DNA from: Dictyostelium discoideum
Taxonomy: Eukaryota
Direction: 5' to 3'
Length of the DNA: 64,000 bases
Assembly: GCA_000004695.1 (NCBI GenBank)
Contig: CM000150.2
Span: 1,440,001 to 1,504,000 of the forward strand
Shown here: positions 26,529 through 34,392 of the stretch, in pieces
How positions within the stretch are numbered: position 1 is the first letter of the stretch
Layout of the letters: each line of letters starts with the position of its first letter
Program-made: the position numbers and the translations under genes
The notes under the pieces: model-generated
Seen by the model: the letters and a program-made list of their open reading frames with translations, nothing else
What the model was told of the DNA's origin: nothing
The model's database searches: none

Positions 26529-26825
26529 TTAATATTTGAAATAATAAAACCAAAAAGCTATAATAATAACAACAATACCTTTTTTTTGTGATTCAGTTAA
26601 ACAACTATCTCTATATTTATCACTTTCTTTCCTATTATTTATATTATTTATATTATTATTATTATTTTCATTATTCTTAAAGGATGGAAATTGTGGTAAA
26701 ACTGTATGATTATTATTTTCTATATTCTTTGATTTTAATTGTATGTTTGCAGAAATTTGAGAAAATGAATTTTTTATATGATCTAAATTTCTATTTGTTC
26801 TTTTATTATTATTATTATTATTTGA

Positions 26826-26876
<51 letters not shown>

Positions 26877-28004
26877 TACAATTGGTATATTAATTATATT
26901 TTGAGTTGGTATTGATTTAATTAAATGTCTATTTTTATATAATAATTCTAATTGTTCTAAATTATCCATAATTAATAATTTTTTTAAACATTGTACACCA
27001 TTACCACCACCAAATATTAAAAGTTTATTTTTTACTACAGTTGCAGAATGAGCACAACGTGCATCTGGGGCATTTACAGTTCTTAATTTCCACCATTTCC
27101 AAACTCGAGTATCTAAACCATAGATATCATTAATTACATGACCATCACCACCACCAAATATAATCATATGTGGACCAATCATATTGGCAGAATGACCTGC
27201 CCTTGGTAATGGTGTATCATCACTATCAGTCGAAAATAAAGTTTGATGTCTCCATTCATTGGTTTCAACATTAAATAAATGGAGATCATTTATCCTTTTT
27301 GTACCTGCGTGACCTGCAAATAATATTAAATGTTTACCATCACCAAAATCTACCATTGTATGACCCCATCTTGCAGACGGTATTAAATTATCATTATTTT
27401 CATTATTTTTATCATTTTTATTATTATTACTATTGATATTATTATTATTACTATTATTATTTTCTTGATTTATCTTTTTCCATTCATACTTTAATAAATC
27501 TAAACAATACATATCATTATATAATCTAATACCATCACCACCACCAAATATATATAATTTATCACCTAATAATGTTGAGGAATGTTTTGATCTACCAGAT
27601 GGTATATCACCTGTAGTATTTATACAATTCCACTCAACAGTTTCTAAAGAAAGGAAAAAAAAAAAAATATTAATATTATTATTATTGAATTTTTTAAAAT
27701 AATAAAGTACTTACTTGGATCAAAAATGAATATATCATTTAAAAAACCAGAAAATGAACCACCACCAAATACAATTAATTTACCATTATAAGAATTTAAT
27801 GAATGACCATTTCTTGGTGTTATGAAATTATTTTCAACTTTAACTTCTTCCCATTCCCATGTTTCTATATTCAATTTAAATAAATCATTTAACATTTCAT
27901 TATCATCATTCCAACCACCAAATACATATAATTCACCATCTATTGTCTCTGATTGATGGGCACATCTTGAATTGGGTTCATTTTTAATTTGTTCAACTCT
28001 CCAC

Positions 28005-28006
<2 letters not shown>
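26529..28006 (-). CDS. Kelch-repeat (beta-propeller) protein with internal poly-Asn insertions; 2 exons: 28006-27715, 27643-26529
   Basis: Repeated Kelch blades (W..v...P.R.gHs....g.klyvFGG....lNDl; for example ELYVFGGWNDDNEMLNDLFKLNIETWEWEEV, KLIVFGGGSFSGFLNDIFIFD, DKLYIFGGGDGIRLYNDMYCLDLL, HMIIFGGGDGHVINDIYGLD). Donor A|GTAAGT at 27714 and acceptor TTTAG before 27643 are in phase (A+AA = Lys), giving FDPSK|TVEWNCINTTGDIPSGR. Confidence 0.8.
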
Positions 28007-28364: not shown

Positions 28365-28964
28365 ATGTCAAGAAAAAGTTCATATAAAGAAAGAAATCAA
28401 CCATTAGAATATACAAAAGTTGTACCAAAATTTTTAGAAAATTTAAAAAAACAAACAGAGGTTGACATAAATGCAAAATTTGAAAATTATATGAATAAAG
28501 AACGAGAAGAGGGAGAGAATAAAGATAACACAGACGAAAAAGATGATTTTGAAAAAGAAGCTATAGAAAGAGCAATTCAAGAACAAAATAGATTAGAAAA
28601 GAATTTTAATGATAATGAAAAACAAAAACAAGAGGAACTAAGAAAACAATATGAAAAAGAAAGAGAACAAAAAATTAAAGATGACCAAATTGAAGATGAA
28701 AAAGCAAAATTAGAAGGTAGAGAAAGAAAAATAATTTTTCAAAAACCCACACATTTAAATAATAATAATAATAATAAAAAAACTGATAATTCACAAAATG
28801 ATTTAAAAAAACAAGCTGAAATTGTAAAAAAAACAATAATTTCAAATAATAATAATAATTCAAAACTGAATTCAATTAAAAAAAAGGTTGAAAAGAAAAA
28901 AACAAATACAAAATTATTATCATTTGATGTTGAAGAAGAAGAAGAAGAAGAAGAAAAAGATTAA
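28365..28964 (+). CDS. Charged coiled-coil protein, KIAA1143 homolog (DUF4604-like)
   Basis: A 199-aa single ORF. The N-terminus MSRKSSYKERNQPLEYTKVVPKFLENLKK parallels human KIAA1143 ([23 protein letters not shown]). The C-terminus ...KKKTNTKLLSFDVEEEEEEEEKD parallels KIAA1143 ...KNSSLLSFDNEDENE. The middle is K/E-rich. Confidence 0.55.
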   Translation: MSRKSSYKERNQPLEYTKVVPKFLENLKKQTEVDINAKFENYMNKEREEGENKDNTDEKDDFEKEAIERAIQEQNRLEKNFNDNEKQKQEELRKQYEKEREQKIKDDQIEDEKAKLEGRERKIIFQKPTHLNNNNNNKKTDNSQNDLKKQAEIVKKTIISNNNNNSKLNSIKKKVEKKKTNTKLLSFDVEEEEEEEEKD

Positions 28965-29083
28965 TAATTAAGAATAAATTATAATATTGTACATAAAAAA
29001 AAAAAAAATACTATTATATTTATATTTATTTATTTTTTTTTTTATTTATTTTTTTATTTTTATTTTTTTATTTTTTTATTTAT

Positions 29084-32000
29084 TTATTTTGCATCATACC
29101 AAGTTTTAGCATATCTACAATCAACAACTAAATCAATTAATAAAGGAGTTGTTAAAGGATTACTCATTAAGTTCATCATGATTGAACGAGCTTCATCTGC
29201 ATGTTGTTCAGGACCTTCCAAGATGAGTTCATCATGAATTTGCATGATTAATTTGAAACCTAATTCTTTTAGACGTTTATTATCTTCAATGATGAGCATT
29301 GCTTTCATTACGATATCAGCTGCACCACCTTGAAGTGGGGTATTGATTGAAGCTCTTTCAGCATGACCTTTCATACCTTTGTTACCTTTTATATCGGGTA
29401 ATTGACGATATCTACCCATTAGAGTTCTAGTCCAACCATATTTATGAGCGGTTTCAATGGTTTTTCTTTGCCAAACTAAAACTTCTGGACGATCTTCATA
29501 CCAACGATTGAGGGTTTCTTTAGCCTCATTTAGGGTTACACCCCAATCTTGTGATAGACCATGAGCGGTTTTACCGTAGGCGATTGAGAAATTCAAAGTT
29601 TTAGCTTTACGTCTTTCAGAGGCATAAACATTTTTAAGGAGTGGTTTTGGTGGCTCACCCTCTCCATCCCATTCTAACAATACCTCTCCTCTATCGATTG
29701 CTTCTTTAACATGTGGATACATACCCATTGCGGTTCTACTATGAAAATCACCACCCACTTGGAATGCTGTTATCATACTTTTACAATTAGTTATGTGAGC
29801 TAGTAGACGTAACTCCAATTGACCGTAATCGGCCACGATCAATGTGTTGCCAGGTTCACATGTAAATGCTTTTCTAATTTTATAACGATCCTTTTCAAGT
29901 GCTGGTTGATTTTGAAGGTTTGGTTTCTTTGATGATAATCTACCAGTTTCTGTATTTACATTGATTGATGTATGAAGACGTGAATTTGAGTCGGCTAATT
30001 TCTGTAATGGTATTATAAATGTATTCAACAATGTACCGATACTACCAAGCTCTAACAAAGCATTGATCGCAATTGATGCTTCCCTACCCATTTGTTCACG
30101 TTCTTCAATTGGTAAATCTTTATAACATTCATTTTTGGATTTCACAAAGAAATCATAAGCTGAGCCGTACTTCCCATCGATTGGATTTTTACCTGCCAAT
30201 TCTCTAAGTGACGATGAATCCACCGATGGCCAGCCATTTGTAGTTAAAGACTTAGATTCCATGCCAATACCTCTTAAATAAAATGTTTTCTTTTTCTTTG
30301 GTTTAGTTTTACCAACTTCAATTGTACCATCTAAATTATCACATTCGAAATCTTTTTCCAATGGTAAAGATTCTTTGGTTTTCTTATTTTGAACGGGTGC
30401 GAAAAAGAGTTGTTGAATTTGAGCATCACTAACTGGATTCATATTTTCAGCATCTGGTGAATGGGTTTTTGCCCAATTTAAAAACACCTTTCTATTCTCC
30501 TCCATGTCGGTATAGGCTTTCTCTTCCAAAGATTTCAAATAGTCAATATCCACTTTTAGCCCTCTTTGCTCCATTTCAGTCAATAGATGTCCAAATGGTC
30601 TCCACATTAGGTAGTAGAAATCCCACATTGTAGTACCTTGATTCCATTCCATGTCTCTCAACTTGATATGAATATTTTCACGAAGTAGCCAAGTCAATTC
30701 AGAATCCAATGATGAATATTCTATCCAATTCAATATGAATTTGCTATCACGTTGAATTCTTTCCAATGGTGGTATAACTATGGATTTACCTTCTTCGCCA
30801 TCAGCTTTAATTTTCCTTGTACCAAATAAATCCTTAATTGGAACCTTTGGTTTATTTAATAATTCCTTACTTAGGGCCTCCAATGAATAGCCGCCAGAAT
30901 TCATTCTAGAAGCATTCCACAATCTTGCCATATGTAATGTATCACCACCGAAGCCTTTGACGTTGATACCATGGTTATAGAAAATATGTCTATCGAATGC
31001 ATAATTATGCCAAACTTTTAATATTGACTCATCTTCAAAGTATTCTTTAAAAACTTGTAAAATCTCATCACCCTCAATATCATCCATAACATCAACCCAT
31101 ACTCTCGAATTACCATCATGAAACTTAACTTGTGGTCCACAATAAATACTAAAACAAATCATTTTACCATGTCCAATTGGTGAGAATTTCTTTAAATCAA
31201 TATCAATAACCTCTGTATCACATGCATGAAATCTATCTTTTTGTTTCATTAAAATCGATACTACCATTCTTGCTGTTTCAACATCTCTAACCATTGTTAC
31301 ATTCTTTGGTTTTAATTGATTAATTTCTTCATTTGAAATTTCATCAAATTTAATATTTTCATCATCAATATAATTAAATTCAACTTTTGAATAATTTTTT
31401 TTAATTGTTTCTAAATTTGTTGTTGATGTTGATGTTGTTATTTCTTGATTATCACTAAAAAGTTTATTTAATTTTTCAACTGAACTTTTAATTGAGGTAA
31501 AATTATATTTATCTAAAAAATTATAAAACTAAAAATAAATATTAATATTAACCATTTTTTTCATATGTGTGTTTTTTTTTAAAAAATTAATTAACTTACT
31601 TTTGTTCTATCAATTGGTTTATATTTAATATCATCTAAATTTAAATTTATTGAAACATTATCATTTAATTTTGCTAATTGATAAGAAATTCTTAATTGAT
31701 CAATTGATGACCTAATTGGTTCAATGAATTTTTGAGGTAATTGATCAATATTTTCAATGATTGAATTTAGGTTACCAAATTTCTTTATGATATCAGTTGC
31801 AGTTTTTTCACCAATTCTTGGTATACCTGGGATGTTATCAACTTTATCACCAATTAAACTTTGAAAAGTTACAAATTTATTTGGTTCAAACCCAAATTTA
31901 TCAATGACACCTTGTTTATCTACCATTGATCCTCTTCTAGTACTGTAGACACTTACATTATCATTAACCAATTGATAAATATCTTTATCATCGGTCACTA

Positions 32001-32613
32001 TTGTAACTTGTGACCCATTGAATCTATTACTCTCTGGATGCGTTGGATCATACTGGTCATTGCCCTCAATGAATTTGTTGCCTTCTTGAGTGGCAAGTTT
32101 TGAATAGGTTGCTAATAAATCATCACATTCATAACCATCGACTTTTGTGAATGCAACATTTATTGAATCTGTGACTTCGGGTATTAGTAAAAGTTGTTGT
32201 AATAATTCTGGTGGTGTTGGTGGTCTATTGGATTTATATTCTGGATATAAATCACGTCTAAAACTACTTCCACCTTTTGGATCAAAACAAACCACTATAC
32301 TATCAATTGGTTTCAATTCATCAATAACCTTTAACATTGATCTCATAAATCCATATAAAACATTAACATTCATACCTTCATTAGTTAATGATGGTGTCGT
32401 TGCATTTGCCTTATATGCCATTAATGTACCATCAATTAATACAGTATGTTTTTTTCTTTTTTCAATTTTAATATCTTTTATTGTTGTCATTGTTGTTGTC
32501 ATTGTTGTTGAAGTTGTAGTAGTAGTATCACCTATTATTGGTACATTATTATTATTTACATTATTTTCAATATTATTTAATATTGAATCTTTTTTATTAT
32601 TTACATTTATTGT

Positions 32614-32648
<35 letters not shown>

Positions 32649-33273
32649 TTATTTGATTAACTATATTTTCAAAATTCATTTGTTCAATTGAGTGACGATG
32701 ATGATGATTATTAGTATTAAAAGTATCTTGACCATAATTATAACTATTAAATTGAAAGTCAGTATCTATTATAGGAGAATCTACAATTTGTGGATGTTGT
32801 TGAAATGGCATTTGGTAATCATTTAAAACGAATGATGATGGTATTTGTTGAATAGTTTTCTTTATTACATTAGTTGGCTTTTTAAAATAAATCTTTTCAC
32901 CATTTGATAATGATAAATATGGAACATTGGATTTAATTTTAATTTTCATTTTTTTAGTTTTCGGTATTTCTTTTTTGATAATATTTATGCCATCATTTTT
33001 TATATCATTTTTTATATCATCACTATTATTATTATTATTACTATTATTACTATTGTTATTATTATTATTACTATTATTACTATTATTACTATTATTATTA
33101 TCTAATTGGTTGGTTATTGGATTTATTATTATATTATCATTAGTAAAATATTTATTATTATAATTATTATAATTATTAGAAAATGAATTTATGAAAAAAT
33201 TTGTAATTAAAGGTGTTTTTAAATTATTTAGATTTTTTTTATATTGTTTTGATATCGTTATCATTTTTAACAA
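29084..33273 (-). CDS. DNA polymerase I-like (family A) with intact 5'-3' exonuclease, 3'-5' exonuclease and polymerase domains; probably organellar; 2 exons: 33273-31600, 31528-29084 (about 1372 aa)
   Basis: ORF 31591..33273 holds the Pol I 5' nuclease domain (VLIDGTLMAYKANA; CFDPKGGSSFRRDLYPEYKSNRPPTPPEL, compare E. coli [27 protein letters not shown]; helix-hairpin-helix IPGIPRIGEKTA). It ends at a GTAAGT donor (AAA|GTAAGT at 31599). A 71-nt intron then joins in phase 0 to TTTAG|TTTTAT at 31528. ORF 29084..31294 extends upstream to that acceptor and carries 3'-5' exo motifs (ACDTEVIDID) plus polymerase motifs A (DYGQLELRLLAH), B (RRKAKTLNFSIAYG) and C (QIHDELILE). Confidence 0.85.
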
Positions 33274-33866
33274 TTTAATAATCTAATTTATTTTTATTTT
33301 TTTTTTTTTTTTTTTTTTTTATTTTTTGGAAATAAATTAAAATAATGAAAAAAAAAAAAAAAAAAAATTTTGAAAAAAACGAATTGAACAAATCTAATAT
33401 TAAAATTAATTTTAATTTTAATTTTTATTTTTTTTTTGGGAATTGATTTAATTTGGGGTGGTTGTGAAATTAAATTTATTTAAAGATTTGGATTTAGTTC
33501 AAGCTCTAAATAATTTAAACTATGAAATCCATACATTAGATGAGAAACCGTGAAAATAATAAAAATAAACATAAAAATAAAAAAAAATAAAATATAATAA
33601 AAATAGTAATAATAATAATAATAATTTTAAATCAAATATTAAATTTATTTTTTATTTTTTTTTATTTTTTTTTTTTTCCAAATATTTTAATCATTATCTG
33701 TTTAATTCACAAACAAAACTTTTTTTTTTTTTTTTTTTTTTTATTTTTTTTTTTTTTTTCATCAAAAAATTTTCACAAAAACGACTTTTTTTTATTTTTT
33801 TTATTTTTTTTTTATTTTTTTTTCATATTACACATATCTGCATATTTATACCTATATATACATAAA

Positions 33867-34392
33867 ATGACTAAAAACGTAATTGGTTCAATAACAAAGA
33901 ATTTAGAAACAGTATTTGGAACTTTAGCAAAAAGAAAGAGTAAAGGTGAAAATTTATTAGATGTTTGTTTTTCATTACCAAGTAGAGGTGTTGGAAATAA
34001 ATTTGCTAAAATGGGTTGGACTGAAAAAGATACATATTGGACCGTAACAAAAACAAAATTTAATAGTATTACTGTATGTCATTATTTTTTTTATTTTTTA
34101 TTTTTATTTTTATTGTACTTTTTATTTAACACATTCAAAAAAAAAAAAAAATAAAAAAAATAAAAAATAAAAAATATATTAGTGTACAAATTCATCATTA
34201 AAAGGTCAAGCATATGGTATTTTAACATGGGGTGGTAAAACAGATACAAAAGAAAGAAAAATTGATGATGCTTTTTCAAAAGATTGGACAATTTACCCAG
34301 CTATTAAATTTCCAGCTGCAGCTGAACCAGTTGTTGAAACTGTTATAACTGAAGAAAATCCTCAAACTGAAGAACAACAACAACAAAACTAA
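33867..34392 (+). CDS. Small hypothetical protein (about 138 aa); 2 exons: 33867-34073, 34183-34392
   Basis: The ORF 33867.. ends at ACT|GTATGT. A poly-A/T intron leads to TATTAG|TGT, giving the in-phase continuation CTNSSLKGQAYGILTWGGKTDTKERKIDDAFSKDWTIYPAIKFPAAAEPVVETVITEENPQTEEQQQQN. No family was recognised. Confidence 0.4.

Follow-up and report, generated by a model that had tools for sequence, protein, structure and literature searches.

We analysed a stretch of 64,000 nucleotides from Dictyostelium discoideum (GenBank assembly GCA_000004695.1, contig CM000150.2, positions 1,440,001 to 1,504,000; hereafter the window, whose numbering is used for all coordinates). On its minus strand lies polA, which we read, with a probability of about 0.9, as a nuclear gene for a family A polymerase of the POP (plant and protist organellar) type with an N-terminally fused 5'-3' exonuclease/flap endonuclease like that of bacterial DNA polymerase I (Pol I). 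An earlier note, made from the letters of the window, had joined two open reading frames (ORFs) into one gene and had described its product as a Pol I of bacterial architecture. The gene model was borne out by our analysis, whereas the polymerase half of the product was found to be POP-like in its identity to known proteins, in a tree and in its insertions.

polA is a single two-exon gene

In the ORF list of the window, a 560-amino-acid (aa) ORF (31591..33273) and a 736-aa ORF (29084..31294) are entered separately on the minus strand. These are one two-exon nuclear gene on chromosome 1 (Table 1), joined in phase by the 71-nt intron that the earlier note had proposed. Exon 1 ends with ...GAT AGA ACA AAA at 31600 and the expected GTAAGT donor begins at 31599, a position that is the first base of the intron and not, as had been given, the last base of the exon; read unspliced, the frame past exon 1 continues as V-S-stop. 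From 31528, exon 2 keeps the same frame, reads FYNFLDKYNFTSIKS... and runs for 78 codons to the ATG of the 736-aa ORF, and the spliced junction would read GATAGAACAAAA|TTTTATAATTTTTTAGAT. The GC content of the intron is 12.7%, against 24% and 33% in the exons, while the window as a whole, with 22.6% GC and poly-N coding, is typical of Dictyostelium. Translation starts at the first ATG (33264, context AAAAATG) and yields 1369 aa, close to the 1370 or so predicted; the listed start at 33273 is a mechanical TTG start of the ORF, from which the spliced coding sequence would count 4119 nt.

The one-gene model is carried by four independent lines of evidence: by an alignment that is unbroken over the junction, by a common intron position, by transcripts of other amoebozoans and by an exact match to a deposited protein. 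Taq polymerase (1bgx/1taq) aligns to aa 271-568, and the match passes through the exon boundary as DRTK|FYNFLDKYNFTSI versus DRERLRAFLERLEFGSL, placing the last helix of the 5' nuclease domain in exon 2, and the alignment to 10 bacterial Pol I sequences is likewise continuous there. The orthologues of D. purpureum (71 nt, PIDKTK|FLNFLEKY, with identical phase) and Polysphondylium violaceum (69 nt, PINRAN|FVKFLEKF) have an intron at the identical codon boundary, although the intron sequences themselves are unrelated. Transcript-derived fused proteins ('ORF type: complete') are available from Cochliopodium, Copromyxa, Protostelium, Rhizamoeba and Pyxidicula. Finally, the spliced product is identical, residue for residue, to XP_647557.1 / EAL73185.1 / UniProt Q8I7W9, deposited as 'mitochondrial DNA polymerase A [Dictyostelium discoideum AX4]'. 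The reference annotation, which stays unchanged, thus already contains the correct gene model, and polA is not an overlooked gene.

That the two ORFs are separate genes, as in plants, with a stand-alone, OEX1-like 5'-3' exonuclease in the 560-aa ORF and a POP starting at the ATG of the 736-aa ORF, is highly improbable. In its favour, each ORF is open by itself, the second has an ATG at its start, plants do have OEX1 and POL1A/B as separate proteins, and a prokaryote-style gene caller made exactly this split. Nevertheless, the 234 nt from the intron acceptor to that ATG are in frame and encode the last helix of the 5' nuclease, aligned with Taq and bacterial Pol I; three dictyostelids have the canonical GTAAGT...TAG intron at one and the same phase-0 position; in other amoebozoans, transcripts without the intron encode a continuous fusion; and the reference annotation is the fusion.

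The warning that intron-blind annotation would split the gene wrongly holds for such a caller, but the reference annotation has the spliced model, and a 736-aa call is the only split version that was found. A genomic Logan contig (L001, SRR26869256) corresponds to window positions 29061..32642, with 3579 of 3582 bases matching and the intron retained, and prokaryote-style calls on it break polA up into a fragment of 349 aa and a protein of 736 aa (P0122); the latter shares a 90% cluster with the true full-length protein. P0122 illustrates how ORF calls that ignore introns find their way into protein databases. An exact-protein lookup for the 1369-aa product had no contig on record.

As a separate observation, the P. 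violaceum orthologue has a second intron (contig L003, 3324..3399) within the H3TH DNA-binding motif (GDKVDN|I|PGIP). It is missing in D. discoideum and D. purpureum, indicating intron gain or loss among dictyostelids.

A POP-type polymerase half behind an intact 5' nuclease

A Pfam profile search with the 1369-aa product matched four domains far over their cut-offs (PF02739, PF01367, PF01612 and PF00476; Table 1), and all three Pol I domains named in the earlier note are thus represented. The E. coli-like 5' nuclease motif that it had pointed out, YKSNRPPTPPEL, was located at aa 343-354 and compared with a 12-residue stretch of a Pasteurellaceae Pol I. In addition, Taq and Klenow structures aligned to both halves of the protein in an alignment of PDB sequences.

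Catalytic residues were examined in an alignment of 58 sequences comprising 21 fused POPs, 27 other POPs and 10 bacterial Pol I. The 5' nuclease carboxylates are all intact, with D278, D328, E379, D381 and D382 in the PF02739 stretch, D426 and D428 just downstream, and D473 and D476 in the H3TH part, as are Y343, K344 and R347 of the YKxxR motif. In the Taq alignment D278 to D476 pair, in order, with Taq D18, D67, E117, D119, D120, D142, D144, D188 and D191, the metal-binding carboxylates of that enzyme. Wherever a fused POP covers the position, these 5' nuclease residues are kept (three sequences are truncated N-terminally at D278), as they are in all 10 bacterial Pol I. The loss of 5' nuclease catalytic residues that the earlier note had named as a refutation is therefore not seen. 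The residues of the 3'-5' exonuclease (Exo I D659/E661, Exo II N730/D734, Exo III Y826/D830) and of the polymerase (motif A D1122/E1127; motif B R1194/K1198/F1202/Y1206; motif C H1320/D1321/E1322) are also intact and are kept in 21/21 fused homologues, the Exo I-III residues being invariant in 48/48 aligned POPs.

The PIN-like domain of D. discoideum contains an insert of about 20 residues (IEGNDQYDPTHPESNRFNGS, aa 400-419, window 32008..32067, minus strand) between the EcDD and DDKD metal-binding motifs, at which the Pfam match splits in two. The insert, probably a surface loop, has a counterpart in D. firmibasis and none in D. purpureum, other amoebozoans or Taq.

With the full protein as query, dictyostelid orthologues ranked first, followed by bacterial Pol I at 25-28% identity (about 25-30% overall). 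When the Klenow-like half was searched, POPs matched at 47-65% identity over about 100% of the query (about 50% for plants, oomycetes and red algae, against about 27% for bacterial Pol I), including those of oomycetes, plant 'DNA polymerase I A/B, chloroplastic/mitochondrial', Cyanidium, Blastocystis 'mitochondrial DNA polymerase', diatoms and haptophytes; Pol theta chains scored only about 1e-23. A neighbour-joining tree built from 595 columns separated the bacterial outgroup with 100% bootstrap and left deep branching among POPs without resolution. This comparison with bacterial PolA, which the earlier note had suggested, places the Klenow-like half with POPs, outside the sampled bacterial Pol I. 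Furthermore, three insertion blocks (Table 1) are found in all aligned POPs and are gapped in 10/10 bacterial Pol I; the third, a gap in Taq, is common to plant and oomycete POPs. The blocks match three POP-specific insertions, two in the thumb and one in the fingers, that have been described for AtPOLIA/B (PMC7699545). Since POP-level identity, the tree and the three insertions agree, the polA product is, as judged from its sequence, a POP-type polymerase with an added N-terminal 5'-3' nuclease and not a bacterial Pol I kept whole.

The product thus resembles POPs (Arabidopsis POL1A/POL1B, Cyanidioschyzon POP, Tetrahymena POP; CDD cd08640) in a full-length 3'-5' exonuclease and polymerase half with the same thumb and fingers insertions and catalytic motifs, and differs from typical POPs in its N-terminal 5'-3' nuclease and long poly-N/S/T leader. 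High processivity and phosphonoacetate sensitivity are the biochemical hallmarks of POPs (PMC4166229). With bacterial Pol I (E. coli PolA, Taq) it shares domain order, catalytic residues and a colinear alignment, and it differs from them in low overall identity, POP insertions, an organellar-like leader and a spliceosomal intron.

We consider it barely credible that an intact bacterial polA was acquired whole, by recent horizontal transfer or as a contaminant, with all domains from one bacterial ancestor. The domain order is indeed that of E. coli and Taq Pol I, and N-termini of bacterial Pol I match the 5' domain at about 36-41% identity. However, the gene has a spliceosomal intron, lies in 22.6% GC Dictyostelium sequence and shows conserved eukaryotic synteny, and its polymerase half belongs with the POPs, having insertions that only they possess and matching the plant enzymes at about 50% identity. 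The bacterial Pol I closest to the 5' domain also differ from those closest to the Klenow-like half, and bacterial Pol I scores against the two halves show a negative rank correlation (rho -0.47), a suggestive comparison that is biased by selection in that the sets were chosen by different criteria.

Distribution and origin of the fusion

POPs have been described as lacking a 5'-3' exonuclease domain (Hirakawa and Watanabe, PMC6523293), and an N-terminal 5'-3' exonuclease fusion was recorded in about 8% of POP-cluster sequences as 'singular cases', citing Moriyama 2008 (Czernecki et al. 2023, PMC10201439). The architecture is therefore unusual, as the earlier note had held, in being that of a minority of POPs, which in the literature does not disqualify a protein from the family, but it was already on record, it is widespread in Amoebozoa, and 5'-3' exonuclease domains are also known from other eukaryotic organellar family A polymerases (rgPolA/CmPolI, rdxPolA, eugPolA; PMC4166229, PMC10877234). 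The rdxPolA and rgPolA (CmPolI) enzymes (Harada et al. 2024) resemble the polA product in being eukaryotic, organelle-targeted family A polymerases that have retained the 5'-3' exonuclease, but they form separate clades from specific bacterial Pol I lineages, whereas the polymerase half of the Dictyostelium protein is a POP. Plant OEX1 and OEX2, compared by description, have the same PIN-like and H3TH type of nuclease and presumably serve the same polymerase family in organelles; OEX1 is a separate polypeptide that interacts with POL1A/B, whereas the Dictyostelium 5' nuclease is covalently fused.

Among the 120 best POP matches, 15 carry PF02739 and PF01367, and the six dictyostelid orthologues from the full-protein search are additional. 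A profile of the fused 5' domain run against the same 120 at E<=10 found only the 15 known fusions and no remnant in the other 105. The named fused proteins are from Synstelium, Planoprotostelium, Protostelium, Copromyxa, Rhizamoeba, Pyxidicula and Cochliopodium. We take the first three genera to be Evosea, Copromyxa, Rhizamoeba and Pyxidicula to be Tubulinea, and Cochliopodium to be Discosea. On this assignment the 5' nuclease-POP fusion is widespread in Amoebozoa, occurring in Dictyostelia, Variosea, Tubulinea and Discosea and thereby in all three major branches. This breadth (Tubulinea, Discosea, Evosea) is not spelled out in the POP literature that we surveyed and is an incremental point. 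The 5' domain tree and the polymerase tree show matching subclades, which is what a long shared history of the two halves would produce.

A GC-rich fused 5'-nuclease-POP homologue of 1152 aa (P0160), free of introns, was found in JGI metagenome 3300056827 (contig L084, 3001-6459; also on contig L085). Its contig is very densely packed, with a Rio2 kinase gene and an ankyrin-repeat gene adjoining, and could come from a compact eukaryote. A giant-virus origin was considered and rejected, as an IMG/VR scan gave no viral relative.

Several comparisons bear on the source of the 5' nuclease domain. When the Dictyostelium domain served as query in an exhaustive HMMER search, dictyostelids came first, followed by a flat plateau at 34-43% identity, mostly of Pol I length; three named clusters looked up among the 5' domain matches were all Rickettsiales, in whose favour the AT-rich composition of the Dictyostelium query could have inflated scores. 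GTDB genomes were also scanned with the pattern EADD[LI][IL]A[TSA]Y, with confirmation against the Cochliopodium domain; about three quarters of the best 80 among the matches listed were Alphaproteobacteria, a class towards which the pattern could be biased. Neighbour-joining with labelled alphaproteobacterial and other Pol I recovered fused-POP monophyly at 62% with 20 states and 26% with Dayhoff-6 recoding, and a clan of non-alphaproteobacterial Pol I at 69% and 47%, respectively; with three groups and no root, this test cannot say which pair is closer. When the 5' domain was placed among random bacterial Pol I and stand-alone exonucleases, deep nodes were without support. A word-indexed search with the 5' domain alone says nothing on origin, since its 65 matches were short stand-alone exonucleases, most of them unnamed, and did not include even the dictyostelid orthologues. 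Together, the named matches hint at an alphaproteobacterial affinity of the 5' domain, which, if real, would be another incremental point.

Previous studies placed POPs outside alphaproteobacterial Pol I, while plant 5'-3' exonucleases and rdxPolA were derived from Alphaproteobacteria (PMC4166229, PMC6523293), which makes a chimeric origin plausible. The protein might then have arisen in the ancestor of Amoebozoa by the joining of an alphaproteobacterial-type 5' nuclease, possibly an rdxPolA-like relic of the proto-mitochondrial Pol I, to a POP of other ancestry; alternatively, the fusion might be the ancestral POP state, later lost or split elsewhere. The Rickettsiales and alphaproteobacterial best named matches and the mirrored subclades favour this scenario, which we regard as doubtful but worth stating. 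If it were true, Amoebozoa would have a natural single-chain version of the plant OEX1 and POL1 'holoenzyme' and would represent a surviving intermediate stage in the process by which the original polymerase of the mitochondrion was replaced.

Predicted mitochondrial role and gene neighbourhood

The N-terminal extension of the polA product begins like a presequence, as the earlier note had observed: its first 42 residues are acid-free, with the first D/E at residue 43 and 5 K+R in the first 40. The Dictyostelium-style low-complexity inserts that it had mentioned are present as poly-N/S/T, and Pfam found no domain in aa 1-267. Across 12 orthologues, N-termini are basic and acid-poor to acid-free. 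PolA was named as the suspected mitochondrial DNA polymerase in a study of Twm1 (PMC6299598).

In the mechanism that we propose, the basic N-terminus would direct mitochondrial import, and the polymerase and 3'-5' exonuclease would replicate and repair mitochondrial DNA together with the Twinkle-like primase-helicase Twm1, the exonuclease presumably proofreading as elsewhere in its family. The tethered 5' nuclease would remove RNA primers and the 5' flaps that arise from strand displacement, allowing nick translation. Primer and flap removal is the task of the Pol I 5' domain in bacteria and of OEX1, acting in trans, in plant mitochondria (PMC4166229 for the plant enzymes); in animals it falls to other nucleases. 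The equivalent plant function was only recently assigned, to the separate OEX1; Amoebozoa have a POP to which the Pol I 5' nuclease has either stayed joined or become joined again, and D. discoideum PolA could serve as a tractable single-polypeptide model for primer and flap removal by organellar replicases.

Some points weigh against our reading of polA. No junction-spanning D. discoideum transcript was recovered, the sole Logan contig found being the intron-retaining one; the presequence was judged by composition only; a literature search returned no localisation, activity or knock-down data on Dictyostelium PolA beyond the remark in the Twm1 paper; and one laboratory's attempt to purify PolA in soluble form failed (PMC6299598).

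A real protein that works as a nuclear or cytosolic repair polymerase rather than in mitochondria would fit with the lack of a localisation experiment in the literature search and with the 267-aa low-complexity extension, which is atypically long for a presequence. This alternative is nonetheless improbable: POPs are described only as organellar in literature surveys (PMC10877234, PMC4166229, PMC6523293, PMC10201439), for abanPolA, another family A enzyme of Amoebozoa, a nuclear location has been inferred (PMC10877234), Pol gamma is not reported outside opisthokonts (PMC10877234), basic and acid-free N-termini recur in the 12 orthologues, and in three species the gene paired head-to-head with polA encodes a mitochondrial ribosomal protein.

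Table 1. Coordinates of polA, of its predicted parts and of neighbouring genes in the window.
Feature	Position	Strand	Remarks
polA gene, ATG to stop	29084..33264	minus	2 exons and 1 intron; product 1369 aa
polA exon 1, coding sequence	31600..33264	minus	aa 1-555
polA intron, spliceosomal	31529..31599	minus	phase 0; 71 nt; GTAAGT...TTTTTAG
polA exon 2, coding sequence	29084..31528	minus	aa 556-1369 and stop codon (29084-29086)
N-terminal extension	32464..33264	minus	aa 1-267; acid-free basic start (putative presequence), then poly-N/S/T
5'-3' exonuclease / flap endonuclease, PIN-like N-terminal part	32071..32445	minus	PF02739; aa 274-398 (best stretch); E 9e-40
5'-3' exonuclease, H3TH / SAM-fold part	31606..31887	minus	PF01367; aa 460-553; E 7e-27
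3'-5' proofreading exonuclease	30668..31228	minus	PF01612; aa 656-842; E 8e-10
Family A polymerase	29093..30631	minus	PF00476; about aa 855-1367; E 9e-79
POP insertion 1	30275..30400	minus	about aa 932-973; lysine-rich; thumb
POP insertion 2	30074..30190	minus	about aa 1002-1040; thumb
POP insertion 3	29624..29692	minus	about aa 1168-1190; fingers; RGEVLLEWDGEGEPPKPLLKNVY
MRP-S34 orthologue, two exons	33867..34386	plus	tblastn 56% and 43% identity to D. purpureum gene pieces
199-aa lysine/glutamate-rich ORF	28365..28964	plus	DUF4604 sub-threshold, 20.6 bits vs cut-off 28
Kelch-repeat gene in two ORFs	26529..28006	minus	intron presumed between 27512 and 27644

The head-to-head neighbour of polA is an orthologue of MRP-S34, separated from it by a spacer of 602 bp (33265..33866) with 11.8% GC. 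The same divergent pair is found in D. purpureum (contig L002) and P. violaceum (contig L003), and the two genes, both presumed mitochondrial, may share a bidirectional promoter. ARAGORN detected no tRNA or tmRNA genes in the whole 64-kb window. On the other side of polA, the lysine/glutamate-rich ORF and the Kelch-repeat gene follow (Table 1), and the region downstream of polA in D. purpureum has the same order, with a 194-aa gene without a recorded Pfam match and then a Kelch gene.

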